Shown here piece by piece: positions 25,791 to 55,386 of a stretch of DNA of 64,000 nt (position 1 is the stretch's first letter; each line of letters begins with the position of its first letter). Location of the stretch: NCBI GenBank assembly GCA_026023565.1, contig JAPETS010000007.1, forward strand, positions 310,001-374,000. The letters are read 5' to 3'. The notes beneath the pieces were generated by a model. That model did no database searches, was not told the origin of the DNA, and saw only the letters and a program-made list of their open reading frames with translations. The DNA is from Cirrosporium novae-zelandiae (Eukaryota). The position numbers and the translations under genes were made by a program.

Positions 25791-26118
25791 GTTCGTCCGC
25801 CATTGAGTTTTTTTACCTAGGTAGCTAGGTAGCTAATTAATTAATCAGTTCGACAACAATATACTACCCTTTAGGTATGCAGTATGAGATACCTGAGCAA
25901 GAGGTTTCGCAATGATGGATACAAGTCTTGGTAAATGTTAGAAACTAGATGGGATGGATGATTTGTCTCAACTTCAGTATATTACCCACTCTCCTGATGA
26001 CAGTTCCTTTCCCACCTCTGTCGCACTTTCTTCGAGCCCTGCTCAACGTTTCTAATCCTCGCCCGAAGGTGACTCTCGCTACAGAGAGATCAACATTACA
26101 GGTGATTGAAACAATACA

Positions 26119-29100
26119 ATGGCCAATATTACATCTCTCGGGGCTCACGAGCCTTCAGCACTACCCTACCTTGTCTCTGAATCTTTACTTGCACCGGATT
26201 CGAAAGATTATGTCTGGACTGTCGACACAAGCTTTGAGGATAATGTAAAAGGCGTTGAGGATGAGCTTCTGGCGACGAAACACTGTGTAGTGTGGTCACG
26301 AGGAGGAGTTGTCCAGAGACTTTTTAGATTTGAAGACGGCGAGGATGAAATTGTGCAAGCGGTTTTGACTCGCTTTCCAATAAAAGAACCCCATCAACCA
26401 TCCCCAAGCTCTCCAAAAAGGAGACAGAAAAGACGACCCGCAAAACTAGAAAACAAGAAGGTCAGGTCTTCAAGTCCAGATAAAACCAAGGAAACTAAAA
26501 ATGAGCACTCGATTGGTGGCGGCAATAGTATCAGCTTATCAGAGAAGGCGATTGTCGTCGCACTGAAAACAGAAGCGCACATATTTCTGCTTTCCGGAAC
26601 TAGCTATGTTGTCCAACTTCCATTCGAGGTTGAATCAATACTATCTGCTCCGCGTGGAGTCATCCTGCAAAGAAAGCTTCCTGCTGATGTCGATCTCATT
26701 AGCCCATTTCTCCCTCCAGTTCCTCCCAACTCATTCGCATATCCACAGCCAAGACCCCAGTCCAAAAATACACATATGGGAAGAAAAAGTGGCTCTTCCT
26801 TTAGAAGTGAGATACCATTTGGTATCCAACCCCACTCTTTAGGAGCAGATACAAGTGCCAATCTTCCTCGGGCTTTCTCGCTCACTGATCCTTTAGCTGA
26901 GATGGGCGTTGTTGTTGCGACAAGTGATAAATCTACCTCTCGGAGTACCGATGACTCGGACGTCGTTGCCATTGAAGCGTTAGACAGTAACGAGGAGCTG
27001 CTGCACATCTCCCCTCTTAGACTGCATGTCAATGCAGAGAAGTCTTCGTGCATACTTGCTGTTTCATTCAATAGCCGGGCTGGTACTTATACGGTCTGGA
27101 GAGCCAAGTACGTTACCAAAACAGAACTTCCGTCGCAGCAAAAGAGAATCCCTAGTACGTCAAGTGTACTCTCTCGGAGACGTAGTTCACACGGATTTGG
27201 AGCTCCTTCTGGAGCAGATACACCAAATTGGTCAAGACAAAAAGGCTTTAGGGAGAGCTTTGGTGGTGCCTCTCAATATGAGCCAAGGAAGTCGATGTCA
27301 GCTTCTCAGGCAGAGAAGTATGAGACATCAGAAAAAGATACTTTCGCTGCACAACTTGACCCAGAACAGGAATTCTCCAAGTCCTCAAGAAGAGTAAGTT
27401 CCTTGCTTGCTCGGGGAGACCTATCCACAGGCCATGAATGGTCTAATTTCACAGATATCAGCGTCAACAATTCCTTCAATGGAGGCACTACAGCAACTAG
27501 TCGAGCTTCTTTTGGGGGAAAGATCCGACATAGCTTTGGATCTGCCCTTGGCTTTGGCCTGCGACATTCATTACCTGGACAGTCCCCTCGCAGCATTGGT
27601 GGAAATAGTTTCATTGATCCCGTACCTGATGACGAGCTTGATGATCTCAACCTGGAAGACAATTCAGATTCTTCGGATCTAGATCGAATGATATCTTCGG
27701 ATCGTATGACAGGCCTACACAGGGAGTTAATGTTAACCAAGGTAAAAACATTTCAGTCACAACGCCGACAAAGTTTCGTTTCTGTGGGGGATAATCATGA
27801 CAAACCAAAGGCCTTTGTTGTTGAATGTCCTGAGACAGCTGCATCCCACTCGGATGATTTTAGGACTTTCATACTTGGCATTATGGATAGTGAGAACCAT
27901 GAACTGATAGTTACAACATTGAGAGCCCATTTAGTATCTAATACACGGCCTGCACATCAAATCGCTTCTAGTAGTTCGGTTCAGATCACAACTATAGAAG
28001 CGGTTGAGATACGCAAGGGAACGAATATTCTGGATGCTTGCAGAATTAATGATGGCCAAATATCCCGCCTACTGGTCATGAGCGAAACATCTGATGGAGC
28101 AAGGGAGATATCCCTTCAAGCTCCTTGGAGTCCCCTTTTTAAGCTACAACTCCCTCTTTCTCTTTCAAGCATAAACCCTTTTGGAATTCCTATGATGAAG
28201 TCGAGGGCTTCCCAAATAAATCTTTTCCAATATGCTGACGTTTCCGAACTGGGAATGGTCTCTCTCCGCCATGCAACATCGAGAGGCCGAGTGGACTTTG
28301 TTGATCGGCAAGGAATACACCACCAGGTCCAAATAGAACTGGACGCCCGAGACCCCCAAGTCAAGAGGATGATGGATGTCTGTCGTTTCGTTTTGCCGGG
28401 TCCAGAGAACGCGGGAGAGGGACTGCTCATTGGATTGTGGAATATTCAAACCTGGTTAAAATCTCGTCAAGACATTACCTCCAACAATGAGTCAACAGCT
28501 TTTGTGATACTACTTTTTGCAATGGCTGTTAGTTTTCTCCCCTCAAAGTTTTCCGCCGTCGTCCATGCGAAGATGACAACTTCCTTACAGCCCTCGGGTT
28601 TAGGCACTGCTTTTGACCGTATGCTCCAGGAGGAACGCTCTCACGGTCTCCCGCTTCACTGGCTGAGTTCCCCTGCATGGGACTGGACCCAAGATGCCTT
28701 GGCCGAGATTACGGTATCTTCAAAGTTACCGCAAAATGTATACATACTACAGTGTGCTCTACTTGCTCAAGAATTTCTTAGGAGCCCCAAAGGACAAGAG
28801 GCAATCGGTAGAGATGGGTATCTACCCACCTCTCTTGCCCGAGCCACAGAATCGCAAAGGTCTGCTTTAGCGAAGATCCTCATCGCCTTACATTTGCTAC
28901 GAGAGGAACAAAAACTTGATATTACAGCCGGTGCCACAACTGGTCTAGGATCCTTACCCTTTGCGGCAGTTCTTTCCCAGTTAGGAACTTGGCTTGGATG
29001 GAAATCCTGGGGAAGGAAACCCAGCTCCTACTATAATCTAGAAGACGCTTCCATCGATGACTGGCTTTATGATGATTGTGTGATTGAAGGACGAATTATT

Positions 29101-31974
29101 ACTATTCCGTCAGAGCCATTCACGCCCCCTTCAATCCTTGATTTTATCGACAAATGTCTAAATAGCCAGCAATTACCTCAGTTTCCCTCACTATTAGATG
29201 TTGCCGGACGGGACAGATACCATAATGTGCAGGAGATGGCAAGGCTGACTCCAGACACCATATCAATTCTCCAGTTTCTGTCTAGAGTGCGAGGAATGAA
29301 GTTCTCTCCTACTTCCTGGACCGAAGCTATTGCCGAGTCTGGCTTGAATATATCAATGCTTGAAAAACTCCCAGAGGGTGTCAGAGCTCCATTCTTCGAG
29401 GCTATTGTGGGGTGTCAAGCTTCACCTCCAATCTCTTGGGCAGGGGATCTCCTTGAACTTGTAGGTCGTAGCGATCTACGGAAATTGCTTGAAGGTGATC
29501 AGATGCAAAATCCCCCAATGAGAACACCTGCTATTGTTACACATGAAGCCACTCGTGATTTTCATACAATCGGACATGCGGTCCTCGAACCAGATCAAAT
29601 TTCACCTTTTGACGGATCAAGCGAAGTTGACCGGCAGATAATAACAAAACTAATCTTTAATCAGGACCGGAGGTTTTTTGAGGCAGTGAAACTTCTTCAT
29701 CCTATGAAACCGGCAATAGCGCGTTGTACCCCAGAGCCTCAATGGTCAGATGTAGAATTCCTTGAAGCACAGAAGACGCTTGTGCAAATTGTTGCCTACA
29801 GAACTCTTTCAGTATCACCGGGGCGGGGAATGCTCCAGTTCAGTACCAAGAATCCATTGTTGACAGAGAAGTTGCCAATTCCTGGTTTTACACTCACCTG
29901 CATTGTGAAGCCATCCAATAATACTGTTACGGCGGAAAGGAGCATTTTCACCGAAGAGAAAGTGGGCTGGGCCTTTTTCCATGCCGGCGCTTCGACTGGC
30001 TTATCAATATCAAAAGATGCGAAAGGCATCGATACATCTTGGATCCTATTCAATAAACCCCCCGATTTGAGCAACAGGCACGCTGGCTTTCTCCTTGCTC
30101 TTGGCCTGAATGGTCATCTTAAAAATATTGCCAAGTGGGTTGCATTCAAATATCTAACCCCAAAGCATACTATGACATCTATCGGCCTCCTTCTCGGACT
30201 CTCTGCATCCTATCTGGGAACCATGGATTCACTAATTACTCGTCTCTTGTCTGTCCATGTGACTCGCATGCTCCCTCCTGGTGCAGCGGAGCTTAACCTT
30301 TCTCCTCTTACTCAAACAACTGGCATAATGGGCATAGGACTTCTCTATTGCAACTCGCAACACCGCAGGATGAGCGAGATTATGCTTTCGGAGATTGAGA
30401 ATATTGACCAGGACGATTCACCTACTCCACTGGAGATGCTCAGGGATGAGTGTTATCGGACAGCCGCGGGCTTTTCTCTCGGGTTTATAAATCTTGGCAA
30501 AGGGAACGACTTGCAAGGCCTCCAAGATATGCATTTGGTTGAACGCCTTTTAGCATTGGCGATAACAAGCAAAAATGTTAATCTAGTTCATATTCTTGAT
30601 AAGGCGACACCAGCGGCTATTATTGCCATTGCGCTTATCTTTCTAAAAACTAATAATTCGTCCGTGGCTCGTAGAGTTGATATTCCAGATACTGTTCACC
30701 AGTTCGATTATGTGCGACCAGACAACTTCCTTCTTCGGACTCTTACAAGACATCTTATCATGTGGGATGAAATAGAACCCACAGTTGAATGGTTCACCCG
30801 AAGCCTACTGCTGCCTTACCGACATAAAGCATCTCTAGAGAAAGTTTATACTCTCAACACAGAAGACTTGCCATTTTTCAATATGGTTGCAGGGCTCTGC
30901 TTCTCCATCGGTTTACGGTTTGCAGGGTCTGGTCGTAATGATGCTAGAGATTTACTAGTTCATTACCTCGACCAATTCATCCGTATTTGTAGATTGCCTG
31001 CGGTCAATTACGATTCCAAGCTCACAAGGCTAACAGTTCGAAACTGCCAGGATCTGGTCGCCCTTTCCGCAGCAACCGTAGTTGCAGGAACCGGCGACCT
31101 TCATGTTCTTAGGAGACTGCGTTCTCTGCACGGCCGGATTGATCCCGATACTCCCTACGGGAGCCATCTCGCAGCACATCTTGCAATCGGTGCCCTGTTT
31201 TTAGGTGGGGGGCAGTGCACCTTCGGGACCTCTAACCTGGCAGTCGCATCACTATTTTGCGCCTTCTACCCACTATTCCCAACCTCTGTGCTCGATAACA
31301 AAGTCCACCTTCAGGCTTTTCGCCACCTCTGGGTTTTGGCAACTGAATCGCGCTGCATTGTAATTCGAGACATCAAGACACAACGGCCTGTTTCTGTTCC
31401 TATCTCTCTCCAACTCAAGGGAGGCGATAATCCTCGGACGATCAACACGCCTTGCCTTCTACCTGAGCTTGATACTATTTCAAGTTTGAAAATCAATAGT
31501 CCTGACTATTGGGAAATTACGCTTGATTTTGTGCGCAATCCACAACATTTATTAATGTTTCGAAAGTCACAGAATGTCTATGTGCGCAGGCGTGCGGCCT
31601 ATGACAATCCCCATTCATCAATCTTTTCGCGTACTGTTCAAGCATTGAATGATGCTCAACTTTCACTTGCAGGTCCCCAAGCTCTGGAATGGGTACTTAA
31701 CTTACCAGCATTCTCATCACTGAGCCTGTTTGAAAAAGCGCTCATCTTGCCTCTTGCTCAAACTGGTATGTTGAGCGGGATCAATGGGACCGTGATTGAT
31801 GCGAGATTACTACTGGAGAGCAATGCGATTACAGCAAAGGGGAACAGGGATGCATATTTGAATATTCGCATCCTCGTCGATTGGGCTAGGAAGGTTCAAC
31901 GTGAGGGTGGGAAATTGGCCTGGATCGGTAATGAAGTTATTGAATGTATTCGGGGAGAAATGAGTAATGATTGA
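26119..31974 (+). CDS. APC1: anaphase-promoting complex subunit 1 (BimE/Cut4/Apc1), 1951 aa
   Basis: N-terminal EDELLATKHCVVWSRGG; PC-repeat region WAFFHAG...HAGFLLALGLNGHL...SIGLLLGLSASYLGTMD; YGSHLAAHLAIGALFLGGG and HLQAFRHLWVLA. Confidence 0.96.
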   Translation: MANITSLGAHEPSALPYLVSESLLAPDSKDYVWTVDTSFEDNVKGVEDELLATKHCVVWSRGGVVQRLFRFEDGEDEIVQAVLTRFPIKEPHQPSPSSPKRRQKRRPAKLENKKVRSSSPDKTKETKNEHSIGGGNSISLSEKAIVVALKTEAHIFLLSGTSYVVQLPFEVESILSAPRGVILQRKLPADVDLISPFLPPVPPNSFAYPQPRPQSKNTHMGRKSGSSFRSEIPFGIQPHSLGADTSANLPRAFSLTDPLAEMGVVVATSDKSTSRSTDDSDVVAIEALDSNEELLHISPLRLHVNAEKSSCILAVSFNSRAGTYTVWRAKYVTKTELPSQQKRIPSTSSVLSRRRSSHGFGAPSGADTPNWSRQKGFRESFGGASQYEPRKSMSASQAEKYETSEKDTFAAQLDPEQEFSKSSRRVSSLLARGDLSTGHEWSNFTDISVNNSFNGGTTATSRASFGGKIRHSFGSALGFGLRHSLPGQSPRSIGGNSFIDPVPDDELDDLNLEDNSDSSDLDRMISSDRMTGLHRELMLTKVKTFQSQRRQSFVSVGDNHDKPKAFVVECPETAASHSDDFRTFILGIMDSENHELIVTTLRAHLVSNTRPAHQIASSSSVQITTIEAVEIRKGTNILDACRINDGQISRLLVMSETSDGAREISLQAPWSPLFKLQLPLSLSSINPFGIPMMKSRASQINLFQYADVSELGMVSLRHATSRGRVDFVDRQGIHHQVQIELDARDPQVKRMMDVCRFVLPGPENAGEGLLIGLWNIQTWLKSRQDITSNNESTAFVILLFAMAVSFLPSKFSAVVHAKMTTSLQPSGLGTAFDRMLQEERSHGLPLHWLSSPAWDWTQDALAEITVSSKLPQNVYILQCALLAQEFLRSPKGQEAIGRDGYLPTSLARATESQRSALAKILIALHLLREEQKLDITAGATTGLGSLPFAAVLSQLGTWLGWKSWGRKPSSYYNLEDASIDDWLYDDCVIEGRIITIPSEPFTPPSILDFIDKCLNSQQLPQFPSLLDVAGRDRYHNVQEMARLTPDTISILQFLSRVRGMKFSPTSWTEAIAESGLNISMLEKLPEGVRAPFFEAIVGCQASPPISWAGDLLELVGRSDLRKLLEGDQMQNPPMRTPAIVTHEATRDFHTIGHAVLEPDQISPFDGSSEVDRQIITKLIFNQDRRFFEAVKLLHPMKPAIARCTPEPQWSDVEFLEAQKTLVQIVAYRTLSVSPGRGMLQFSTKNPLLTEKLPIPGFTLTCIVKPSNNTVTAERSIFTEEKVGWAFFHAGASTGLSISKDAKGIDTSWILFNKPPDLSNRHAGFLLALGLNGHLKNIAKWVAFKYLTPKHTMTSIGLLLGLSASYLGTMDSLITRLLSVHVTRMLPPGAAELNLSPLTQTTGIMGIGLLYCNSQHRRMSEIMLSEIENIDQDDSPTPLEMLRDECYRTAAGFSLGFINLGKGNDLQGLQDMHLVERLLALAITSKNVNLVHILDKATPAAIIAIALIFLKTNNSSVARRVDIPDTVHQFDYVRPDNFLLRTLTRHLIMWDEIEPTVEWFTRSLLLPYRHKASLEKVYTLNTEDLPFFNMVAGLCFSIGLRFAGSGRNDARDLLVHYLDQFIRICRLPAVNYDSKLTRLTVRNCQDLVALSAATVVAGTGDLHVLRRLRSLHGRIDPDTPYGSHLAAHLAIGALFLGGGQCTFGTSNLAVASLFCAFYPLFPTSVLDNKVHLQAFRHLWVLATESRCIVIRDIKTQRPVSVPISLQLKGGDNPRTINTPCLLPELDTISSLKINSPDYWEITLDFVRNPQHLLMFRKSQNVYVRRRAAYDNPHSSIFSRTVQALNDAQLSLAGPQALEWVLNLPAFSSLSLFEKALILPLAQTGMLSGINGTVIDARLLLESNAITAKGNRDAYLNIRILVDWARKVQREGGKLAWIGNEVIECIRGEMSND

Positions 31975-32210
31975 ATGTCTAGCGTGGCGTTTTGGAAGAT
32001 GAATCAAAGATGGAAAAAATTAAGAAGACGTTATATTATACAGATATCCAAGAAAGCGCTTCTTATGATATAGTGAACGTACGACATTAAAACATAACTT
32101 GAAAAGAAGAGAGATGACAGCCCAAAAGATAATTAATTATTTTTGTACACGTTTTGGGTAAGGATGTAGAGTTAAATGATGTAATTATGAAAAATATGCT
32201 AATTACATAT

Positions 32211-35200
32211 CGTATTATTCAAAAAACGTATTTAATTTTTAAAAAATTTTCGATTTTTTAATACGAATATTAGTTTTTTTTTTTTGATTATATTAAATTA
32301 TTAATTTTTTTATTTTTTTATTATTTTTTATAATTAGATTTTAACCGTTTTTTAATACGGGTATATTAATATTAAATAAAAAACGTTTTAATATAAAACC
32401 CCGTATTATTAATATTCTAAAATAATAATAATTTTCGTATAATATATATATTCTTTAATAACGGTATATCCCGTTTTTATTTAATAAAGCCTATTTATTA
32501 ATTTTTTAAATACGTATTTTAACACCCGATTTTTTTTATATTTCAGATATATTCGATACGATTTATCGGGCGATTTTTTTATTTTTTAATTATATGATTA
32601 ATTATATATTTTTATTATTTATTTTTTAATTATATAATTAATTATATATTTTTATTATTTATTTTTTAATTATATTATAAATTATATAAACCAATAAAAT
32701 TTATTTAATTATTTTATTATTTTTTAATATTATATTTATTTTGGCCGTTTAATTTATTATTTCGTTCTTTAATATTCTATAATATTTTAAAATTTATTTA
32801 ATAACGATTTTTATTTTTTAATTTATTAAATATTTAATATATTCGTATATTTTTTATACGATTATTTAATTTTTTTTTAATTTTTTTTTTTCGATCCGTT
32901 TAATAACCGTTTACGAATTAAATAATATTATTATTTTTTTTCCGGAGATTTTATAATTATTCGGGTACGCTTTAATTATTATTTATAAAATTATTTACGT
33001 TTTTTAAAATTTTATATTAAATATTTTTTTATTTTAATTTAAATAATATTTTTATATCGTTTATAAAATTTTTTCGATTATTTTTTAAATTATTTTCGTT
33101 TTTATTTTACGGTTTTTTAATTTAAATCCGTTCGATTAATATACGTTTTTTTAATTTTATATTAACGTTTTGTTAAAAATTTATTATTTTAAAAATATTA
33201 TTATTTTTTTTAAAAATCTATTTTTTTCGATTATTTAAATTTTTTCGATTTTAAAATTCGGATTTATTATTTTTTAAATTATTATTATAATTAAATATTA
33301 ATTTAATATATTTTTTTTAATTTTTTAAATTTATTAAAAATTTTTTAACGATTATTTTTTTAATTAAATATTTATATTTTTTATTTTAAATATTATTAAT
33401 AATATTAGATTCGTTAAATTTTTTTCGATTTTTTAAAAATATTAAAATCTATATTTTTTTTACGCGGTATTTAATATTACGTTTATAAAATATATATAAA
33501 TTTTCTATATAATTATTATTATTAAAATTATTTTATAAATTTTTATTATTAATTTTATAAATTTATTTAATAATTTTTAAAATTTTATTTAATATTCGAT
33601 CTGTTTTTTTTATTAGATCTCGCACCCGTATATATAAATTAATATTATCGTCGTTACGATTATTTAATACGTAAACCCCGTAAATAGCCTGTTTCGGTAA
33701 TATATATATTTAATTACGTTTTCCGCGCGCCTAATTTTGATTAAATACTGGGTATAATAAATTTAGAAATTAAATTTCGGATTTAATTATATATTTAATT
33801 ACCGTATATAATTTTTTTTATATTTAATCGGGTAATTATCGATCCTAATTTTCGGTTTCGTATTTATTTAAATTTAGTATTTACGTAATTTAAAAAATAT
33901 TATAATTTTAGTTTTTTAAATATCGAATTTTAATTTATTTTTTTTTTTTATTAAACCGCCGTTTTCGTTATTTATTAAATAATTTTTTAGGCTTATTTAT
34001 TATTTATATAAATAATCGAGAAATTTACGTCGTCTACGAATAATAGGATTTTAATTCTAAAAACCGTTTATTCTACGGCTGCGAATAGCCCGCTGTAATA
34101 TATTAAAAATAATATTAAAAATACGGATAATTTTTATAATATTTTTATTTCTATATTAATTCGGGATTATATTTCTTCGTCTATTATTAATTCGACGTTT
34201 CGTTGGATTATAAAATTAATTATTTATTTAATAATATTTTTATCGATTTTTAATTATTTTAAATATTATATTAATTTAAATTATAATATATAATTAAATA
34301 TTTTTTTTATATTTATAAATAAAATATAAATTATTTATTTTCGATTAAATCTTTTTTTTATTCGATATATTAAATATATAAATATATTAATTACGTTTCG
34401 ATTATATTTCGATCTAAATTAATTTTTATATAATTTATTTAGATTTTCGTATATATTTATTAACGTATTAATTACGATTTTTTCGATTATTTTATTTAAA
34501 TAATATAATAAATTTATTATTTTATAATTTTTAATTAATATTTTATCGGTTTTTCCGGGTTTAAATAATAATATTTTTTAAATATATTTTTATTACGTTA
34601 AATAATATTTTAATTAAAAATAATATCGGATTATTTTTATTATTTTATTAAAATTCTATTATTATAATATATATAACGCTCTAAATTAAATATTATTATA
34701 TTCTAAAATTTTATTCGTATTTTATACGTATAATATTTTCCGCACCGTTTTCTCGAATAATTATTAGACGAATATCTTTTTAATCGGAGGCTGAGATTCA
34801 GGGTTTTTTAGGGGTGGCGGGAACGCCTATTCCCGTATAAAAAAAATTTTATTTTTAGTTTCTACCGCTATTCTCCCGTTTTCTATACGGAACGCCGATA
34901 TCGGGTTTCGGTTTTAGAATTTGTAGTATTTTAATATTTTTTATCCTTATTAAATATTTTCGGGGTTTAAAAATTTGTTTAAATCGTTTTTTTTTATATA
35001 TATTTAAAAAAAATCTATTTATTTATTTTTTTTTTTAATTTTAATTAATTTTATAAATTTTTTAAATACCGTTTTAATTTTTCTGTAGATCCGGCGTTTT
35101 TATCTCGTTTTTTTAAACGTTATATAATATTCGTGTTTTTTAACGGTATATTCGGGGTTTTATTAAATTTTCGACCAGACGTATATTTATTTAGATTTTA

Positions 35201-37475
35201 CGTATTTATTTAAAATAGTTTTTAATTAAATAATAATTTTTTATATTTCGTTTTTTAATTACGTTTCCGTATAATCTATAATTAATATATTTTTCGTAAT
35301 TAATTAAGATTTTTATTTTTATTTTGTTTTAATTTATTATTAAAGATTTTCCAACGATTTTAAATTCTATAAATTCGGGATTAATTAGCCTATTTTTAGG
35401 CGGTAATTTTTTTATTCGAATTAAATAAAAATATAATCTGAATTAATTTTTAATTTATTATTTATATTATCGATTACCGCGTTTATTAATTATTTTTAAA
35501 ATAATTTTATTACGGAATTAATTATTATTAAATTAATTATTAAATAACGAATTAATTTTTTTTCGAATTAAATATTTTAAATAATATCGTTTTATATTAT
35601 TAAATCCTATTTTTTTATAAATATTATTAAAAACGCGTCGTTTATATAAATAATTTATTTGGATTTTTATATTAAATTATAAATATTAAAATTTTTTATT
35701 AATATTATTTTATTATTATTAAAAATAAATTTTTATTTTATATTTTATAAAATTTTTCTAAATTTTTATTATCGATTTTATTTTTAAAAATATACGTTTT
35801 TTAATTTTTAATCGTAAATATTAATTATTTTAATTAGATTTTTTATTTTTCCGTTTACGTTTATTATATTAATATCTAATATTACGAAATAAAAATAATT
35901 AATTAAATCGGTTTTTATAATTATTTTAAATATATAATTTTTTTAATTTTTATATATAATAATAATCGTTTTTATAATTTTATTTTTTATTTAGATTTTT
36001 AATTCGGATTAATAAAAATTTTATATTAAATATAATATTTTTTTTTTTAATTTTTAATTAAATTTTTATAATAATATTATATCCGTTTTAATTTATATAA
36101 TCGATTTTAAAATTATAATCGTTATATCGTATTTTTTATAATAATTATATTATAATATTTTTATTTATAATTCAGATATATCATTATTTATTTACGATAC
36201 GAATATTATTAATATTTTCGGTATTATTAATATTTCGGGTATTATTTATATTTTTTTTTTTAAAAAAATTAATATATAAAATAATTATATAACGTTTTTT
36301 TAATATTTTTTTTTTATATATTTTATTTTTATTTTTCGGGTAATTAAATATTTTCTGTCCATAATTATATAAAGATCTAAATAATTTATATATTTTAATA
36401 AAATATATATATAAACCCCCGTATACGTAAATTTATATTCTATTATCCGATATCGGTAATTTTATATTTTATATATTTCCGTATATATAATATATATCGG
36501 GGTTTTATTTTTATATTTTAAAAATAATTTATATTTTAATTAAATATATTTTAAATACGTTTTATTTTTTTTTAACGTAAATTATCGGATATATCGAAAT
36601 TTATATTTTATTAAATAATAATTTTCGATTTTTTATTTTTCGTATATTATAAACGGGAATTTTATTTTAATCGAAATAATATATTTTTCTAATATAAATC
36701 CGGTTCGTACCCGTTTTTAATAATATTTTTCCGGTATTATTTATACGATTACCGTGTTTCGGAATAATTAATAAATATTTTCTAGATCTTTTTTTATTAG
36801 ATTTAATTCATTTGGACCCCCAAATATTTTTAGGGGTATTTTTTATATTTTTATTTAATATAGGGTTTCTAATAAACGTATATTTATTATCGCGTTATTT
36901 ATTTTCGTTACGGTTGTAACGGCGTGCCAAGCATATGCGCTTCGTAGGCGCATAGGCGAGGCTTGGCGCGTGGCCAAACCTTTATATAGGAGAACGCTGC
37001 TTGATTCATCAAGGCAGCGTTCGATTTTTGTATCTATAGAAGGAGCACTTCGAAAGCTATCATCATTACTTGCGTCTTGCATGCGAATAGCACGTTATAC
37101 CTATTAGTTATATATTCTATTGCCTCACTAATCTACCACACTGCCTGTACTAAGCGCTGCCTTCACAACGGTTTTTAGAATTTTTTATTTATATTTGGGT
37201 ATTAATATGCCCGTATTACTTTTTTTATCGAGCGTGGCTCTTAGATTGTTTTCTCTATTAATATAGGTTTCCCGCACCCGTAGTTCAGGCGGTGCGCCTA
37301 AATCAGTTAATTTGGCGTTGATCGCCGTTACTACTGGTGCCGTAAAGCCCGAATATTCGGCCCCCTCTCTATTAAAAATTAGTATTTTCTGATTTTCAGT
37401 TTTTGTATCCCCGCCTGCGGAGCCAGTGCGTTTTTTCCTACGGGGTTTGATTATTTGCTATTCTCTATTAGGCCT
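32211..37475 (-). mobile_element. Tad1-like LINE copy A: lacks the first ~1 kb and last ~450 bp, interrupted by a solo LTR, fused at its 5' side to a tRNA-headed sequence
   Basis: The reverse complement aligns colinearly with copy B from ~40969 to ~46024. The RT FVDD region lies at ~34025-34100. Confidence 0.88.
36915..37167 (+). mobile_element. solo LTR (253 bp) of the gypsy element, essentially unmutated
   Basis: TG...CA ends; 5-bp TSD ACGGT at 36910-36914 and 37168-37172; matches the LTRs at 48406-48658 and 55387-55639 in opposite orientation. Confidence 0.95.
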
Positions 37476-38290
37476 AATCAACGTCTTCATTCGTCTATTC
37501 TAGGGATACACCTTAAGCTTGGTAATTACATCCAAACCGACTACCGCGTCTGTCCTCTCGAGCCAAATTACCTATATAGTCGGCTCACTCCCTAAGCCCT
37601 AGTTCTTCCTGATCCAAGCCCTAATCCTAGCCCCCTAATCCCCCCCCTAGACCTAGTCCCTAGACCCTAGTCTAACCCCTAGTATTAGCCCTAAACCCTG
37701 ATTTCCTAGCGCCTCGGGGACCTCGAGTCGACCCTCAGTAGTTCTTTGCTACGGCCCGCCAATCCAACTGATTGATTTCCCGTTGCCGCTAACCCTTTTA
37801 GGCTAGAAACCGTCGTAGTCTTGCCCTATATATATAGGACTAACCGCCTGTCGCAATTCTAGGGCTAAATCCGGGCGCAGGGATACCCGGAAAACAGCCC
37901 TTTCTAGAATTTTGATTTGACAAGGCTAGGGGTGTCCTGTCAATGTGGGATATAGGGCCTAAACCCTAATTCCTATATTGTCGGATAGTTTTTAAAGCCA
38001 TTCCCCTATTTAGAATTATTCATGAAATCCAATTTCTAGGGTTAACCCTAGGGTCTAGGCCCTAGAATCGCATTTTCGAAATTAGATTTCCCCGGAATTA
38101 ACTGACTAATTATCCGTACAATAGCCTATTTACGACTGTTATATTGTCGAGGATAAGAAATTATAAAATCGCGTGATTTTATAATTGTGAAGGTGGCGGG
38201 AATTGAACCCACGAGCACTATTATGCTAAGACAAGCCCGGAATAACGTTGCTCCCTAATAGTGCCTTATACCTCTACACCACTCACCCCC
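37476..38290 (-). mobile_element. ~815-bp tRNA-headed (SINE-like) sequence of unknown family
   Basis: GC-rich segment absent from LINE copies B and C. It begins on the minus strand with a tRNA-like head carrying Pol III A and B boxes. Confidence 0.65.
38188..38290 (-). ncRNA. tRNA-like element (pseudo-tRNA or SINE head; loosely like an intron-containing tRNA-Pro)
   Basis: A box TGGTGTAGAGG (38281-38271); B box GGTTCAATTCC (38209-38199); acceptor-like stem GGGGGTG/CACCTTC; T arm GTGGG-TTCAATT-CCCGC; 10-bp stem GGCACTATTA/TAATAGTGCT. The anticodon arm is non-canonical. Confidence 0.7.
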
Positions 38291-39601
38291 TTTATATTTT
38301 TATTTAATATAAGATTTTTAATAAATATATATTTATTATCGTATTATTTATTTTTATTACGGTTTTTAAAATTTTTTATTTATATTTAAATATTAATATA
38401 CCCGTATTAATTTTTTTATCGAATATAGTTTTTAAATTATTTTTTTTATTAATATAAATTTTCCGTACCCGTAATTTAGGCGGTACGTTTAAATCAATTA
38501 ATTTAATGTTAATCGCCGTTATTATTAATATTATAAAACCCGAATATTCGGTTTTTCTTTTATTAAAAATCAATATTTTCTGATTTTCAATTTTTGTGTC
38601 TTTATTTATTGAACTAATACGTTTTTTTTTATAGGGTTTGATTATTTACTATTTTTTATTAGGTTTATCTATTATTTTACTGATTATTTTGGTATAAATA
38701 AATCCCGTAGCCGGCGTTATTTTTGCAGAAATCTATTTTGGGGTTTTCGGTGCCAGCGGTAAAATCTTTTGTCTGGCTATTTTTGCCGTCTATTAGGGGT
38801 TTTTCTAGGTTTTTTTATCCGCCTATATTATTGTTCGCGTGCTAGATATCTGCGATCCGGCTATTATATCCGTTCGAAATATTATTAAAAAAAATATTAT
38901 TATTTTTTTTTTTATTATTTATTCAGGCCTAATTACTAGGATTATATAATCTTTATTTATAGAATTTTCCGCCCTATTATATATAATTTTTGCGGTTTTT
39001 ATTTAGATTTATAATACCTGGATTATTATTATAATTATTTTTTTAATTATTAAAAATTTTTATTTAATTATATATAATTTTTTCTAATTTTTTTTTAAAT
39101 TTTTATAATTTTATTATTTCGTTTTTTTAAAACGATTATTCAGGTTTTTAAACCGAAAAATATTTCCCGTAATTATACCGTAAAATCGTCGGTTTTTAGA
39201 ATTTAATATATTTTTTTTTTAATTACGGGAAATATACGTATTATTATATATTTAATCGTTTATTCAATTAAAATATCCCAGTTATTAATTTATTTTTTTT
39301 ATAAAATTTTTCGATAATATTTCTTTATTTAATCGTTTTTTTTTTAAAATAAAAATTATAATACCGAATCGCTAGATTTTATTATAAAATTTTGTTTTAA
39401 TTCGTTTAATTCGTTTTTTAAATATTGTCGTTTTTTCGTATCCGTTTAATTCTCGTTAACGATACGTATTTTTTTAATCCCCGATATTTTTTTTTTATTA
39501 TTAAATTTTATAGATTTTAGATAAACGTTAATTATTTCGTATAACGGTCGTCATAATAGTGAATTGATTTGGTGGCGCGGGGTCACCAAAAAGCGTTTTC
39601 T
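38291..39601 (-). mobile_element. inverted 5' segment (~1.3 kb) of the LINE, probably the inverted part of copy C
   Basis: Reverse complement of copy B ~40013-41344, including the conserved 5' block GCTTTTGGTGACCCCGCGCCACCAAATCAATTCACTATTATGACGACCG. Confidence 0.85.
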
Positions 39602-39986
39602 TAAAAAATTCTGAAAATTATAACGAAAATAAATAACGCGATAATAAATATACGTTTATTAAAAACCCTATATTAAATAAAAATATAAAAAATATTTCTA
39701 AAAATATTTAAAAATCTAAATAAATTAAATTTAATAAAAAAAAATTTAAAAAATATTTATTAATTATCCCGAAATACGGTAATCGTATAAATCATATTAG
39801 AAAAATATTATTAAAAACGGATACGAACCAGATTTATATTAGAAAAATATATTATTTTAATTAAAATAAAATTCCCGTTTATAATATACGAAAAATAAAA
39901 AATCGAAAATTATTATTTAGCGGAACGTAAATTTCGATATACCCGATAATTTATATTGAAAATAAATAAAACGTATCTAAAATATA

Positions 39987-42900
39987 ATATCTAAAAAATC
40001 GGATAAGGAAGAGAAAAAACGCTTTTGGTGACCCCGCGCCACCAAATCAATTCACTATTATGACGACCGTTATACGAAACAATTAACGTTTATTTAAAAT
40101 CTATAAAATCTAGCAGCAGTAAGGAAATATCGGGGGCTGGAAACATACGTGCCGTCAGCGAGAACCAGACGGACACGAGAGAGCGACAGCGCCTAAAAAA
40201 CGAATCGAATAAACCGGGGTAAAATTTTGTAATAAAGTCTAACGATTCGGTACTACGATCCCTATTCTAGAGGGAAAACGACCAGACGGGGAAACGTCGT
40301 CGAGGGATTTTACGAAAAAGAAAAAGCCCTAAAAGAAAATAGATTAATAACCGGGATACCCTAATCGAGCAAACGGCTAGATATACAGTGGTACGTATAT
40401 TTCCCGCAATCGGGGAAAAGGTATACCAGGTTTTAAAAACCGACGATTTTACGGCACAGTTACGGGCGATATTTTTCGGCCTGAAAGCCCAAATAATCGC
40501 CCTAAAAAAGCGAGACAATAAAACTATAAAGGCCTAAAAAAAAACCAAAAAAAATTATACGCGACTAAACAAAAATTTCTAATAGTTAGAGAAATAACTA
40601 TAATAATAATCTAAATATTATAAACCCGGATAAAAACCGCAGAAACTATATATAACGGGGCGGAAAATTCTATAAATAAGGGTTATATAATCCTGGTAAT
40701 TAGGCCCGAACAGGCAATAAAAAAAAAAAAAGTAATATCTTTTTTAATAATACCCCGAGCGGATATAATAACCGGATCGTAAATATTTAGTACGCGGACA
40801 ATAATATAAATAAATAAAAAAACCTAAAAAAACTTTTAATAAACGGCAAAAATAATTAAATAAAAAACCCTACCGCTGGTACTAAAAGCCCCGAAACAGA
40901 TTTTTGTAAAAATAACGCCGGAATCTACGGGGTTTATTTATATTAAAATAGCCAGTAGAATAATAGACAAACCTAATAAAAAATAACAAATAATTAAATC
41001 CCGTAAAAAAAAACACACTGGCTCCGCAGATAGGGATATAAAAATTAAAAATCAGAAAATATTAATTTTTAATAAAAAAAAAACTAAATATTCGGGTTCT
41101 ACGGTATTAATAATAACGGCGATCAACGCTAAATTAATTAATTTAAACGTACCACCTGAATTACGGATACGGGAAATCTATATTAATAAAAAAAACAATC
41201 TAAAAACTATATTTAATAAAAAAATTAATACGGGTATATTAATATCTAAATATAAATAAAAAATTTTAAAAATCGTAACGAAAATAAATAATATAATAAT
41301 AAATATACGTTTATTAAAAATTTTATATTAAATAAAAATATAAAGAATATTTTTAAAAATATTCGGGAATTTAAATAAATTAAATCTAATAAAAAGAAAT
41401 TTAAAAAATATTTATTAATTATCCCGAAATATAATAATCGTATAAATAACGCCGGAAAAATATCGTTAAAAACGGATACGAACCGGATTTATATTAAAAA
41501 AATATATTATTTCGATTAAAATAAAATTCCCGTTTATAATATACGAAAAATAAAAAATCGAAAATTATTATTTAACGGAACGTAAATTTCGATATACCCG
41601 ATAATTTACGTTAGAAATAAATAAAATATATCTAAAATACGTTTAATTAAAATATAAATTATTCTTAAAATATAGAAATAAAACTTTTAAATACACGATA
41701 TACGCGGAAATATATAAAACGTAAAATTACCGATATCGGATAATAAAATATAAATCCGCGTATATAAAGATTTATATATATATTTTATTAAAATATATAA
41801 ATTATTTAGACCCCTATATAATCACGGACAGAAAATATTTAATTACCCGAAAAATAAAAATAGAATATATAAAAAAAAAATACCGAAAAAATATTATATA
41901 ATCGTTTTACGTATTAATCCCTTTAAAAAAAAAAGAAATCCAAAAAACCTTAATCAGGGATTAAAAACCCCCGAATTCCAAAAAAAAACGGGGGAAAAAA
42001 CGTAAATAATACCCGAAATACCGATAATACCAAAAATATTAATAATATTCGTACCGTAAATAAATAATAATATATCCGAATTATAAATAAAAATATTATA
42101 ATATAATTATTATAAAAAATACGATATAATAATCGTAATTTTAAATTCGATTATATAAATTAGAACGGATATAATATTATTATAAAAATTTAATTAAAAA
42201 TTAAAAAAAAAAATATTATATCCGGCGTAAGATTTTTATTAATCCGAATTAAAAATTTAAACGGAATATAAAATCGTAAAAACGGTTACTATTATACATA
42301 AAAATCGAAAAAACGTCGTTTTTAAAATAATCGTAAAAACCGATTTAATTAATTATTTTTATTTCGTAACGCTGGATATTAATATAATAAACGTAAACGG
42401 AAAAATAAAAAACCCGATTAAAATAATTAATATTTATAATTAAAAATTAAAAAACGTATATTTTTAAAAATAAAACCGATAATAAAAATTTAAAAAATTT
42501 TTATAAAATATAAAATAAAAATTTATTTTTAATAATAATAAAATAATATTAATAAAAAATTTTGATATTTATAATTTAATATAAAAACCCGAATAAATTA
42601 TTTATATAAACGACGCGTTTTTAATAACGTTTATAAAAAAATAAAATTTAATAATATAAAACGATACCGTCCAAAATATTTGATTCGGAAAAAAATCGGT
42701 TCGTTATTTAATAATTAATTTAATAATAATTAATTCTACGATAAAATTATTTTAAAAATAATTAATAAACGTGGTAATCGATAATATAAATAATAAATTA
42801 AAAATTAATTTAAATTACGTTTTTATTTATTTCGAATAAAGAAATTATTATTTAAAAATAAATTAATTAATTCCGAATTTATAAAATTTAAAACCGTTAA

Positions 42901-45900
42901 AAAATCTTTAATAATAAATTAAAACGAAATAAAAATAAAAATTCTAATTAATTACGAAAAATATATTAACTATAAATTATACGGAAATATAATTAAAAAA
43001 CGAAATATAAAAAATTATTATTTAATTAAAAATTATTCTAAATAAATACGTAAAATCTAAACGAATATATATTTGATCGAAAATATAATAAAACCCCGAA
43101 TATATTATTAAAAAATATAAATATTATATAATATTTAAAAAAACGAAATAAAAATACCGAATTTATAAAAAAATTAAAATAATATTTAAAAGATTTATAA
43201 AATTAATTAAAATTAAAAAAAAAAATAAATAAATCGATTTTTTTTAAATATATATAAAAAAAAACGATTTAAATAAATTTTTAAATCCCGAAAATATTTA
43301 ACGGAAATAAAAAATATTAAAATATTATAAATTTTAAAACCGAAACCCGATATTAGCGTTCCGTATAAAAAACGGGAGAATAATAATAGAAATTAAAAAT
43401 AAAAAAATTTTTATATAAAAACGAATTTTTTTATTATTTTTAAAAAATCTTAAATTTTAATTTCCGATAAAAAAAATATTCGTTTAATAATTATCCGAAA
43501 AAATAATACGGAAAACGTTATATATATAAAATACGAATAAAATTTTAAAATATAACGGAATTTAATTTAAAACGTTCCGTATATTATAATAATAAAATTT
43601 TTATAAAATAATAGAAATAATCCGATATTATTTTTAATTAAAATATTATCCGATATAATAAAAATATATTTAAAAAATATTATTATTTAAATCCGGAAAA
43701 ACCGATAAAATATTAATTAAAAATTATAAAATAATAAATTTATTATATTATTTAAATAAAATAATCGAAAAAATTATAATTAACGCGTTAATAAATATAT
43801 ACGAAAATCTAAATAAATTATATAATAATCAATTTAGATCGAAACGTAACCGGAACGCGATCGATATATTTACGTATTTAATATACCGAATAAAAAAAAT
43901 TTAATTAAAAATAAATAAAAAAAATTTAATTAAAAATAAATAATTTATATTTTATTTATAAATATAAAAAAAATATTTAATTATATATTATAATTTAAAT
44001 TAATATAATATCTAAAATAATTAGAAATCGATAAAAATATTATTAAATAAATAATTAGTTTTATAATCCAACGAAATATCGAATTAATAATCGAAGAAGA
44101 AATATAATCCCGAATTAATATAGAAACGGAAATACCGTAAAGATTATCCGTATTTCTAATATTATTTTTAATATATTGCAGCGGGTTATTCGCAGCTATA
44201 AAATAAACGGTCCCTAAAATTAAAACTCTATTATTCGTAAACAACGTGAATTTTTCGATTATTCAAATAAATAATAAATAAACCCGGAAAATTATTTAAT
44301 AAATAATAAAAACGGCGGTCTAATAAAAAAAAAAAATAAACTAAAATTCGATATTTAAAAAATTAAAATTATAATCTATTTTAAATTACGTAAATATTAA
44401 ATTTAAATAAATATTAAACCGAAAATTAAAATCGATAATTATTTAATCGAATATAAAAAAAATTATATACGATAATTAAATATATAATTAGATCCGAAAT
44501 TTAATTTTTAGATCTATTATATTTAACGGTTAATTAAAACCCGACGTACGGAAAATATAATTAAATATATATATTACCGAAACGGGTTATTTACGGGATT
44601 TATACGTTAAATAACCGTAACGATTATAATATTAATTTATATATACGGATATAAAATTTAATAGAAAAAATAAATCGGTTATTAAATAGAATTTCAAAAA
44701 TTATTAAATAAATTTATTAAATTAATAACGGGGATCTATAAAATAATTCTAATAATAACGGTTATATAAAAAATCTATATATATCCCGTAAATATAATAT
44801 TAAATACCGTATAAAAAAAATATAAATTTCGGTATTTTTAAAAAACCGAAAAAAATTTAACGAATCTAATATTACCGATAACGTTCAGAATAAAAAATAT
44901 AAATATTTAATTAAAAAAATAATTATTAAAAAATTTTTAATAAATTTAAAAAATTAAAAAAAATATATTAAATTAATATTTAATTATAACGATAATTTAA
45001 AAAATAATAAATCCGAATTTTAAAATCGAAAAAATTTAAATAATCGAAAAAAATAAATTTTTAAAAAAAATAATAATATTTTTAAAATAATAAATTTTTA
45101 ATAAAATATTAATATAAAATTAAAAAAACGTATATTAATCGAACGGATTTAAATTAAAAAATCGTAAAATAAAAACGGAAATAATCTAAAAAATAATCGA
45201 AAAAATTTTATAAACGATATAAAAATATTATTTAAATTAAAATAAAAAAATATTCGATATAAAATTTTAAAAAATATAAATAATTTTATAAATAATAATT
45301 AAAACGTATTTAAATAATTATAAAATTTTTAAAAAAAAAATAATATTATTATTTGATTCGTAAACGACTATTAAACGGATCGAAAAAAAAAAACTAAAAA
45401 AAAATTAAACGATTATATAAAAAATATATAAATATATTAAATATTTAATCGATTAAAAAACGAAAATTATTATTAAATAAATTTTAAAATATTATAAAAT
45501 ATTAAAAAACGAAATAATAAATTAAATAATTAAAATAAACGCGGTGTTAAAAAATAATAAAATAATCGAATAAATTTCGTTAATTTATATAATCCGTAAT
45601 ATAACGGAAAAACGGATTATAAAAACGTATAATTAATTATATAATTAAAAAATAAAAAAATCGCCCGATAAATTATATCGAATATATCCGAAATATAAAA
45701 AAAATCGGGTATTAAAATACGTATTTAAAAAATTAATAAATAAATTTTATTAAATAAAAATAAGGTACGCCGTTACCGGGGAATATATATACCGTACGAA
45801 AATTATTATTATTCCGGAATATTAATAATACAGGGTCCCGTATTAAAACGTTTTTTATTTAATATTAATATATCCGCGCTAAAAAACGGCTAAAATCCGG

Positions 45901-46470
45901 TTACGAAAAATAATAGAAAAATAAAAAAACTAATAACCTAATATAACCGAAAAAAAAAAACTAGTATTCGTATTAAAAAACCGAAGATTCTTTAAAAATT
46001 AGATACGTTTTTTAAGCGATACGGAAATAAAAAAACCTTAATACTGGGCCAGACACGAAATAAAAAATCGTAAAACGTATCTGGATTAAAGATAGGTAGA
46101 ACCCGGATACGGGAAAGAAAACGACCCAGAAACAAATATTAAATAAAAACTGGGCCCGTAATAGATACGCGGGGTAAGCGTATACGTGAATAAAAACGGA
46201 AAAAATCGAAAATAAATACGAATAGGCCTATTTATAGGTTACGAACACCGAAATAGCGCTAAAAAACTATCCGGTTAAATAAATCAGGTGATTCTAGGAA
46301 ACCCAAAAAAAGGGGGGAAACTATATAGCCGAACCAGGGGGGTAACCCCCACCACCGTAGTTAAAAGTAAGCCCGAAAAGGGATACAAAAGGGCCTAAAA
46401 ACCCCCGAGTAGAGTCCGTCATAGCTTCTAAACGATATATAGACATAAAACAATGAATAATCATTATCAT
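39987..46470 (+). mobile_element. full-length (~6.5 kb) Tad1-like LINE copy B, inactivated by transitions: ORF1 zinc knuckles; ORF2 APE-RT-RNase H-Zn finger
   Basis: 15-bp TSD CGTATCTAAAATATA at 39972-39986 and 46471-46485; (CAT)n-like tail. Motifs recovered by reversing transitions: Cys/His knuckles ~41690-41850, LQHN..DVVLLQEP-like APE ~42080-42190, RT ~44000-44260, DGSK..EVFDAE-like RNase H ~45130-45270. Confidence 0.92.
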
Positions 46471-48405
46471 CGTATCTAAAATATATTTAATTAAAATATA
46501 AATTATTTTTAAAATATAAAAATAAAATTTTTAAATATATTATATACGCGGAAATATACGAAATATAAAATCATTAGTATCGGATAATAGAATATAAATC
46601 TACGTATACAGGGGTTTATATATATATTTTATTAAAATATATTAACTGTTTAGGCCCCTATATAATTACGGACAGAAAATACCCAATTACCCGAAGGGCA
46701 GGAATAGAATATATGAAAAAAAAACGCCGAAAAAACGTTATATAATCGTTTTATATATTTATCCCTCTAAAAAAAAAAATAAGCCTACAGAATCTTAATT
46801 AAAGATTAAAGGCCCCCGAACCAGAAATCTAGGAAAAAATAAGGGAAAAAACGTAAATAATATCCGAAATACCGATAATACTAAAAATACTAATAATATT
46901 TATATCGTAAATAAATAATAATATATCCGAATTATAAATAAAAATATTATAATATAATTATTATAAAAAATACGATATAACGATTATAATTTTAAAATTA
47001 ATTATATAAATTAGAGCGGATATAATATTATTATAAAAATTTAATTAAAAATTAAAAAAAAAAATATTATATTTAATATAAGATTTTTATTAGTCCGAAT
47101 TAGGGGTTTAAATAAAAAATAAAACCGTAAAAACGGTCACTATTATATATAAAAACCGAAAAAATATTATATTTAGAATAATCGTAAAAACCGATTTAAT
47201 TAATTATTTTTATTTCGTAATATTAAATATTAATAGAATAAATATAAACGGAAAAATAAAAAACCCGATTAAAATAATCAACGTTTACGACCAAAAATTG
47301 AAAAACGTATATTCCTAAAAATAAGACCGATAATAAAAATCTAGAAAAACTTTATAAAATATAAAATAAAAATCTATTTTTAATAAAAATAAAATAATAT
47401 TAATAAAAAATTTTAATATTTATAATTTAATATAAAAATCCGAATAAATTATTTATATAAATAACGCGCCCCTAATAATATTTATAAAAAAATAATATTT
47501 AATTATATAAAATAATACCGTTTAAAATATTTAATTCAAAAAAAAATTAATTTATTATTTAATAATTAATTTAATAATAATTAATTCTATTATAAAATCG
47601 TTTTAAAAATAATTAACGAACGTAATAATCGATAATATAAATAATAAATTAAAAATTAATTTAAATCACGTTTTTATTTAATTCGAATAAAAAAATTAAC
47701 GTCTAAAAATAAACCAATTAATCCCGAATTTATAGAATCTAAAATCGCTGGAAAACCCCTAATAACAAATTAAAATTAAATAAAAATAAAAATCCTGATT
47801 AATTACGAAAAATACGTTAATCGTAGATTATACGGAATCGTAATTAAAAAATAAAATATAGAGGATTATTATTTAATTAAAAATTATTTTAAATAAATAT
47901 ATAAAATTTAAACGGATATATATTTAATCGAAAATTTAATAAAACCCTAAATATATCGTTAAAAAATACAAATATTACGTAATATTTAAAAAAACGAAAT
48001 AAAAACGCCGAATCTACGGAAAAATTAAAACGGTATTTAAAAAATTTATAAAATTAATTAAAATTAAAAATAAAAAAAAATAAATCGATTTTTTTTAAAT
48101 ATATATAAAAAAAAACGATTTAAATAAATTTTTAAACCCCGAAAATATTTAACGGAAATAAAAAATATTAAAATATTATAAATCCTGAAACCGAGATCCG
48201 ATACCAGCGCTCCGTATAAAAAACGGGAAAATAACGATAGAAATTAAAAATAAAAAAACTTTTATACGGGAACGAATTTTCCTATTATTTTTAAAAAACC
48301 CCGAACCTTGGTTTCCGATAAAAAAAGTATTCGCCTAATAATTATCCGAAAAAACAATACGGAAAACGTTATACGTATAAAATATGAATAAAGCCCTAAG
48401 GTATA

Positions 48406-48658
48406 TGTGAAGGCAGCGCTTAGTACAGGCAGTGTGGTAGATTAGTGAGGCAATAGAATATATAACTAATAGGTATAACGTGTTATTCGTATACAAAACG
48501 CAAATAATAATGATAGTTTTCGAAATATTCCTTCTATAAATACAAAAATCGAACGCTATTTTAATGAATTAAACAGCGTTCTTCTATATAAAGGTTTGGC
48601 CACGCGCCAAACCTCGCCTATATATTTACGAAACGTATATATTTGGTACGCTGTTATA
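48406..48658 (-). repeat. 3' LTR of the gypsy element
   Basis: Outer ~77 bp identical to the solo LTR; inner part transition-mutated. Confidence 0.92.
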
Positions 48659-55372: not shown

Positions 55373-55384
55373 CAGCGTTCGATT
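55373..55384 (-). promoter_or_regulatory. self-priming primer-binding site (Tf1/sushi type)
   Basis: AATCGAACGCTG, 2 nt inside the 5' LTR boundary, is perfectly complementary to LTR sequence CAGCGTTCGATT located ~30 nt after the LTR TATA. Confidence 0.8.
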
Positions 55385-55386
55385 AT

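Follow-up and report, generated by a model that had tools for sequence, protein, structure and literature searches.

Full copies of non-coding cellular RNAs that begin at the 5' end of the RNA and are fused directly and in sense to a 5'-truncated long interspersed nuclear element (LINE) have been described in Magnaporthe grisea, where 31 WEIRD-MGL chimeras (MINE) and one three-part chimera (WEIRD-MgSINE-MGL) were explained by single and double template jumps, and where the inserts made by MGL were reported with flanking target-site duplications (TSDs) of 10-20 bp and a GCC*A/T switch motif (PMC2104539). The same paper also summarises the U6-L1 and B2-U6-L1 chimeras of mammals, in which the complete 5' end of a small RNA of the type made by RNA polymerase III (Pol III) is present and the RNA is fused with a 5'-truncated LINE; double jumps are documented for them. 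The tRNA-derived short interspersed nuclear elements (SINEs) of fungi, with a tRNA-related head carrying A and B boxes and an unrelated body, include Mg-SINE (472 bp), mgsr1 (800 bp), Egr1 (700 bp), EGH24 (900 bp) and AfuSINE2 (140-493 bp) among those named in the part of the literature consulted (PMC5063351). Here we describe an insert of ~813 bp with a tRNA-Pro(AGG)-type head, lying within one LINE copy of Cirrosporium novae-zelandiae (assembly GCA_026023565.1, contig JAPETS010000007.1, positions 310,001-374,000 of the forward strand); this whole stretch of 64,000 nt is called the window below, and all coordinates refer to it.

The insert resembles the Magnaporthe chimeras in that what looks like a non-coding RNA copy, beginning at its 5' end and without a TSD of its own, is fused in sense to a downstream LINE part in a filamentous ascomycete. 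It differs from MINE in its order, which is LINE-RNA-LINE and gives an internal duplication of ~378 bp, and in the putative captured RNA, which is tRNA-Pro-headed, whereas WEIRD belongs to no known class in the account cited. No flanking TSD of 10-20 bp is demonstrable here, the junction has no GCC*A/T, and everything has been killed by repeat-induced point mutation (RIP). Compared with U6-L1, the likeness is again a sequence of the Pol III RNA type joined by its full 5' end to a 5'-truncated LINE; the differences are the fungal host, the size of the unit (~813 nt, with a long body unrelated to tRNA) and a LINE that is probably of the apurinic endonuclease (APE)-RT-RNase H type, where RT is reverse transcriptase. 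The fungal SINEs match the insert in their general build and length range, and AfuSINE2 also in its low copy number (PMC5063351, in the part consulted). The first-pass annotation of this DNA had raised a new SINE as one candidate, which we did not uphold, since a 3' tail, a resemblance to the LINE 3' end and a short TSD are all missing from the insert. The head also differs from the heads of fungal SINEs in retaining an intron-like insert at the canonical position, suggesting a copy of a gene or of an unspliced precursor rather than an evolved SINE head.

Architecture of the interrupted LINE copy

Repeats were compared by ordinary BLASTN and by a transition-blind self-BLAST, for which G was collapsed onto A and C onto T beforehand, and the insert junctions were then refined by alignment. 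In the transition-blind comparison the long repeats were 98-99% identical, so that the copies differ almost solely by transitions, which is the signature of RIP. They lie in a 27-kb RIP-mutated transposon block (32210-59007, GC 0.12-0.35) between two gene spaces and include at least four copies of a LINE of 6.46 kb.

The insert (37477-38290, minus strand; unique in the window) lies in the region of the first open reading frame (ORF1) of one full-length LINE copy, copy 1 (39602 to 32211, minus), in sense to it. Upstream of the insert stands the 5' part of copy 1 (38291-39602, minus; element nt 1 to ~1333), heavily RIP-mutated and with the same 5' terminus as copy 2; in the self-BLAST 38288-39602 matched 41347-40013 at 98%, corresponding to element nt 1-1335. 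Downstream, the LINE resumes at element nt ~956 (37168-37476, minus; light RIP, GC about 0.40), the self-BLAST match here being 37157-37487 to element nt 945-1275. It is followed by a 253-bp solo long terminal repeat (LTR; 36915-37167, minus) and by the rest of copy 1 (32211-36914, minus; element nt ~1260-6012, GC about 0.14). Some 378 bp of LINE (element nt ~956-1333) are therefore present in direct orientation on both sides of the insert; the right duplicate is 38291-38667 (minus, GC about 0.16), and the left one comprises 37168-37476 together with the first ~70 nt beyond the solo LTR. The first-pass annotation had placed the downstream junction at the palindrome ATTAGGCCTAAT, ~1 kb into the element, and this was borne out (LINE homology begins at 37476, element nt ~956), while the LINE 5' part at 38291-39602, the duplication, the solo LTR and the loss of the copy-1 3' end had been missed.

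The 5' edge of the insert coincides with tRNA position +1 to within 1 nt (38290 or 38289, base 38290 being assignable either to the head or to the LINE). At its other edge the insert is joined straight onto LINE nt ~956 onward with no tail between; its 3' end, ...GACGTTGAT, has no A-rich, T-rich or (CAT)n run, and no match between the insert and the LINE 3' region was found by either form of BLASTN. No short TSD (4-20 bp) surrounds the insert, in agreement with what had been noticed before, and the ~378 bp of LINE are duplicated instead. Nor was a single TSD for the whole composite found by eye, a weak test given RIP and the missing 3' end of copy 1. The homology of copy 1 to the other copies stops at 32210, ~447 bp before the (CAT)n end of the family. 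A possible remnant of the terminal CATCAT at about 32172-32185 suggests an internal deletion in the 3' untranslated region rather than a true 3' truncation.

The solo LTR, which has TG..CA ends and a perfect 5-bp TSD (ACCGT), entered the LINE in a separate, independent event; its family is that of the LTRs of a 7.2-kb element at 48406-55639. A block insertion of 36916-38287 with a 77-bp TSD was also considered, and was rejected because the solo LTR has this perfect TSD of its own in contiguous LINE sequence.

The repeat is a LINE

The repeat is a non-LTR retrotransposon, as shown by an RT domain, RT-bearing relatives, conserved FVDD, a (CAT)n end, the absence of terminal repeats and 5'-truncated copies. 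Copy 2 (40013-46471, plus) is 6459 bp long with no LTR or terminal inverted repeat in self-BLAST, copies 2 and 4 terminate in ATCAT(C/T)ATCAT, copies 1 and 2 have their 5' terminus in common and face each other head to head (39602 and 40013), and copy 4 is 5'-truncated, beginning at element nt ~1615. In copy 4, the least mutated of the copies, the Pfam family RVT_1 was matched at 56565-57622 in frame 1 (E 8.1e-11, 42.5 bits against a cut-off of 29.6), one of six frames, and the remaining five frames or regions tested alongside gave none. Codon comparison showed that the FVDD codons are preserved in two of three copies. The closest database proteins, two of 226 candidates, are of 1273 amino acids with RVT_1, Exo_endo_phos_2 and RNase_H domains (PF00078, PF14529 and PF00075, with PF03372 in one of them) and show 47% identity over 48% of a 133-residue query. 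The endonuclease and RNase H domains are present in these two relatives and are undetectable in the RIP-mutated copies of the window; the LINE is probably of the APE-RT-RNase H type. Pfam searches of X-read translations found no families for copy 2 (three frames) or for the RT regions of copies 1 and 2, and a phmmer search with the copy-2 RT region against PDB sequences gave a single chance match (E 0.31).

The sequence downstream of the insert had been identified as a LINE with a retained ORF2 in the first-pass annotation. The first half of that stands, given RVT_1 and the (CAT)n end; the second does not, as ORF2 of copy 1 is a RIP-destroyed remnant (GC about 0.14, no Pfam matches) and this LINE copy is dead.

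Two further rearrangements of the family were seen. A ~500-bp tandem duplication inside copy 4 (56066-57068) spans the RT motifs, and its second unit, much less RIP-mutated than the first (GC 0.31 vs 0.25), is the sole stretch in which RVT_1 can still be recognised. Wedged between the 5' ends of copies 1 and 2 is an internal LINE fragment of 385 bp (39602-39986, plus; element nt ~1245-1629). In element coordinates it begins no more than ~90 nt from both the head junction and the site of the solo LTR, so there may be a hot spot of breakage or insertion at element nt ~1245-1335.

The head resembles an intron-bearing tRNA-Pro(AGG) gene

The first 103 nt of the insert (38188-38290, minus) had been described as a tRNA-like head with an acceptor stem, a T arm and an extended 10-bp arm; our analysis agrees, and finds the likeness to a tRNA greater than had been stated. 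The 7-bp acceptor stem includes two G.U pairs, the D arm is poor, and two extra nucleotides follow the acceptor stem; the fold has a free energy of -35.1 kcal/mol (z -2.32), a stability reached by 2 of 200 shuffles. The head carries motifs resembling the A and B boxes, assigned from the consensus sequences of these boxes; the B-box-type motif GGTTCRANTCC has one site in the window (38199-38209) against a chance expectation of 0.14, with at least one match in 13 of 100 shuffles.

The native head was not recognised as a tRNA by the programs used. ARAGORN called no genes in the whole window, and with intron search it gave nothing at default stringency or at -ps95; a tRNA-Asn(att) parse appearing at -ps90 only was dismissed as implausible. 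Rfam likewise gave no tRNA, with no matches in the window at gathering scores, and at E up to 10 there were only sub-threshold matches to the tRNA-like end of transfer-messenger RNA (tmRNA) models, plus noise. The T arm and acceptor of the head matched the tRNA-like end of a tmRNA model with 16.3 bits (E 3.2e-5), the gathering score being 47.

When 31 nt (head nt 39-69; 38222-38252, minus) were removed, ARAGORN called a tRNA-Pro(agg) at default stringency and the anticodon loop TTAGGGA was restored. These 31 nt lie at the canonical intron site, one base 3' of the anticodon, and pair with the anticodon loop, the anticodon-intron helix being the extended 10-bp arm. As a control, 365 deletion variants were submitted, of which ARAGORN called seven, all with deletions starting at head nt 35-40, and three of the seven were Pro(agg). 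A tRNA-Ala-like reading (G3.U70, loop TTAGCAT; Ala(agc) in 1 of the 365 variants) was rejected as it needs a non-canonical 27-nt deletion, whereas the canonical intron site gives Pro(agg). The 21-nt string of T arm and acceptor was found at 60 metagenome loci, where the gene called by ARAGORN was tRNA-Pro in 34, tRNA-Gly in 15, a tRNA with a tca anticodon in 4 and none in 7.

The head thus shares with intron-containing nuclear tRNA-Pro(AGG) genes its identity after removal of the 31 nt, an anticodon loop paired to the intron, and a T4 run that follows after 20 nt. It departs from such genes in lacking a native ARAGORN or Rfam call, in its weak D arm, two extra nucleotides and two acceptor G.U pairs, and in having no 5' leader, as LINE sequence abuts +1. 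The poor D arm and the extra nucleotides after the acceptor stem suggest that the head is a decayed copy or pseudogene of an intron-bearing gene of the tRNA-Pro(AGG) type.

Hairpin and body

Next to the head is a perfect 12-bp A/T hairpin with a 4-nt loop (38159-38186, minus), as the first-pass annotation had stated. Its 3' arm includes the T4 run (38165-38168; piece nt 123), which starts 20 nt after the head at the expected site of a Pol III terminator, and a second T4 run occurs at piece nt 397. The body proper (37477-38158, minus) is non-coding, with no open reading frame of more than 42 amino acids. Hairpin and body together make up the tRNA-unrelated part, previously put at ~700 bp and here at ~711 nt (GC 0.45), and no further copy of it was found in the window by ordinary or transition-blind BLASTN.

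The body is rich in YTAGGG. CTAGGG is clustered in the insert (12 of the 22 matches in the window), while TTAGGG is not enriched window-wide (27 matches vs 41 expected); the two motifs concentrate at 37590-37700 and 38023-38090 (minus). The cluster may be telomere-like or may consist of RIP products of YCAGGG. Nested palindromes with 16-nt arms occur at 37953-37968 and 38049-38064, and TRF found weak periods only (7 and 12-13 nt).

RIP in and around the insert

The light RIP earlier ascribed to the piece is confirmed by its indices: GC is 0.456, TpA/ApT 1.32 and (CpA+TpG)/(ApC+GpT) 0.75, the two indices being 0.73 and 1.29 in host DNA, while the latter falls to 0.18 in 32211-36900. Across the block RIP is markedly weaker (GC 0.3-0.58) at 40013-40500, 46024-46471, 55550-55750 and 36900-38290 than in the interiors of the long repeats (GC 0.05-0.2); these zones are LINE termini, outer LTR ends and short segments between unrelated sequence, and their edges are sharp (100 bp or less). 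For the piece, the solo LTR and the short left segment, low RIP is in keeping with their being unique or short. Other element ends and junctions of the window show comparable relief.

The left duplicated segment has 8 detectable RIP changes, 4 of them common to the right segment, which is mutated at 78 of the 92 other variable sites. The two segments were therefore hit by RIP independently, and so the duplication predates RIP of copy 1.

Copy number in public data

Copy number was assessed on the contigs of the one public sequencing run that contained the piece (X1), in which a fraction of 0.50 of the sampled words was present; no RNA run was among the matching ones. The window-type sequence of the piece has a depth of ~320-365, the summed depth along the piece is 450-1480 and at variant sites 750-1040, and the variant contigs differ from the piece by 1-11 letters and small indels. 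This suggests about three genomic versions of the piece, which fits a source locus plus retrocopies and gives some support, from one run, to the multiple copies inferred in the first-pass annotation. The contig with the exact insert/LINE junction has a depth of 328, the single-copy level, whereas depth over the LINE flanks is 6,000-90,000; two contigs bridge the insert (skips of 1191 and 1198), as LINE copies without an interruption should. Runs X2 and X3 gave 2 and 4 short matches of less than 90%, all in the A/T-rich LINE flank, and a 26-mer from the body had no matches in one metagenome scan.

At position 38192, X1 has A where the window has G (depth 791.5, one contig), a further C-to-T change on the acceptor 3' strand. 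X1 is thus not identical to the source of the window, and the head is drifting.

Origin of the insert

We tentatively favour the view, already put forward in the first-pass annotation, that the insert is a copy of an RNA acquired by template switching of the LINE reverse transcriptase; this is quite possible and is the best-fitting reading of the sense orientation, the +1 start, the direct fusion, the missing short TSD and the MINE precedent. An RNA origin is indicated by a 5' edge no more than 1 nt from tRNA +1, by an orientation equal to that of the LINE and by direct fusion without a tail. Copying of an RNA as far as its 5' end would give a start at +1, while a random DNA breakpoint would fall there at about 3 of 813 positions, and we infer that the 5' edge of the insert is an RNA end. 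The template would have been a 5'-processed, unspliced and 3'-extended transcript of a tRNA-Pro-type locus or, alternatively, the RNA of a SINE-like family, low in copy number, to which such a locus gave rise.

Two routes could have led from this RNA to the present order. The enzyme may have copied LINE RNA from its 3' end to nt ~956, switched to the other RNA and copied it to its 5' end, and then switched again to a LINE RNA ending near nt ~1333 and copied that to the LINE 5' end. Alternatively, a two-part, MINE-like chimera of RNA copy and 5'-truncated LINE may have landed in a resident LINE at nt ~1333, after which two long direct LINE repeats would have recombined. The LINE-RNA-LINE order and the ~378-nt duplication follow from either route. 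Later an LTR element would have inserted at element nt ~1260 and collapsed to the solo LTR, and last of all RIP would have destroyed the long LINE stretches while grazing the unique piece and its short neighbours. The resulting structure is considered to have no present function, and the head could at most be bound or transcribed by Pol III.

Several observations weigh against a template-switching origin. The published chimeras are certified by TSDs of 10-20 bp, which are not demonstrable for this composite, as its upstream flank is another RIP-mutated LINE fragment and its 3' end lacks the family terminus. The second jump of the double-jump route must land on a LINE RNA with its 3' end at nt ~1333, while published acceptors were entered at their 3' ends and there is no poly(A) at the nt ~1333 junction here. 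A Pol III transcript of 813 nt requires read-through of T4 runs, both of that 20 nt after the head and of the second at piece nt 397, and the 3' end of the piece has neither terminator nor tail. The GCC*A/T switch motif is absent at the junction, with a GGCC lying 1-6 nt inside the retained LINE part. Finally, the evidence on copy number comes from the contigs of a single run, X1, which differs from the window (0.50 of words); a mixture of strains may mimic paralogues, and the versions seen in X1 are those of the piece itself.

A more specific form of template switching is that a SINE was caught at birth, a read-through unspliced tRNA-Pro(AGG) transcript having become part of a LINE cDNA when the enzyme jumped twice (LINE to pre-tRNA to LINE); we think this rather unlikely. 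If true, a Pol III-promoter head and body joined to a LINE 3' part would be the very fusion required by models of SINE origin, and the approximately three genomic versions would be the source gene and its first retrocopies.

An origin at the level of DNA is a doubtful alternative, in either of two forms: a host tRNA-Pro gene or pseudogene with its flank may have stood between two LINE copies of which the upstream one lost its 3' part by deletion, or a templated insertion during break repair may have been combined with a local tandem duplication in one LINE. In favour of such an origin, the head differs little from an ordinary tRNA gene with an intron and has T4 20 nt downstream, the GC of the piece (0.456) equals that of the host (0.449), the piece is unique in the window, and the block is rich in nested insertions and rearrangements, such as the 39602-39986 fragment, the 56066-57068 duplication and the deletion near the copy-1 3' end. 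Neither form, however, predicts an upstream breakpoint within 1 nt of tRNA +1 or an insert oriented as the LINE is; the presence in X1 of about three versions of all 813 bp, with the body, is unlike single-copy host DNA, and no TSD connects the end of the piece with the DNA past the LINE 3' end. It is improbable that, instead, an ~813-nt tRNA-Pro-headed RNA (a low-copy SINE or a read-through pre-tRNA) was target-primed into a resident LINE not yet affected by RIP, with breaks ~378 bp apart that left a giant TSD. An order in which LINE sequence recurs on both sides of an insert is formally that of a TSD, the insert begins at an RNA-like 5' end, low-copy fungal SINEs of 700-900 bp are on record (PMC5063351, in the part consulted) and X1 holds about three versions of the piece. 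The TSDs on record are nevertheless of 4-14 bp for AfuSINE2 (PMC5063351) and 10-20 bp for MGL-made inserts (PMC2104539), in the portions of those papers used here, rather than ~378 bp, and the piece has no A-rich or (CAT)n tail, nor any resemblance to the LINE 3' end by which the RT might be recruited.

The remaining alternative, a mobile composite family whose LINE 5' end has given way to a tRNA-type Pol III promoter that drives a 5'-truncated LINE, had been proposed in the first-pass annotation and would account for a head and body fused in sense to LINE nt ~956 onward. It has become very improbable, as the ~1333 nt of the LINE's own 5' part sit directly upstream of the head in the same copy, the T4 runs at piece nt 123 and 397 and the A-rich LINE part of ~5 kb would stop Pol III, and the exact junction occurs at single-copy depth in X1.

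Surroundings of the block

The window is fungal-type nuclear DNA, and the block is flanked by gene space of normal GC (1-32200 and 59000-64000). An APC1 homologue (anaphase-promoting complex subunit 1; 26110-31974, plus) is encoded there in one open frame of 1954 amino acids with an ANAPC1 domain (E 4.6e-176), its end being separated from the RIP-mutated block by ~240 bp. The 7.2-kb LTR retrotransposon at 48406-55639 has LTRs of ~255 bp with TG..CA ends (48406-48660 and 55387-55639) and a GTATA target duplication, and is nested in LINE copy 4 at element nt ~3540; a Pfam search of its interior, on the plus strand only, found no families.

Significance

The structure is real and well defined and is best read as a LINE-made chimeric relic, and its kind of event and mechanism have already been described; with the element dead as well, its practical importance is small. 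The locus is a clear natural case in which RIP spares a unique island of ~0.8 kb and short repeat fragments within a saturated block. If the template-switch reading holds, it would add a fungal case from outside Magnaporthe to those in which a LINE reverse transcriptase recombines RNAs, and its unusual details would be the capture of an intron-bearing tRNA-type transcript with a long 3' extension and the return of the enzyme to LINE RNA, leaving the ~378-nt duplication. Such RNA-LINE fusions are the proposed raw material of tRNA-derived SINEs.

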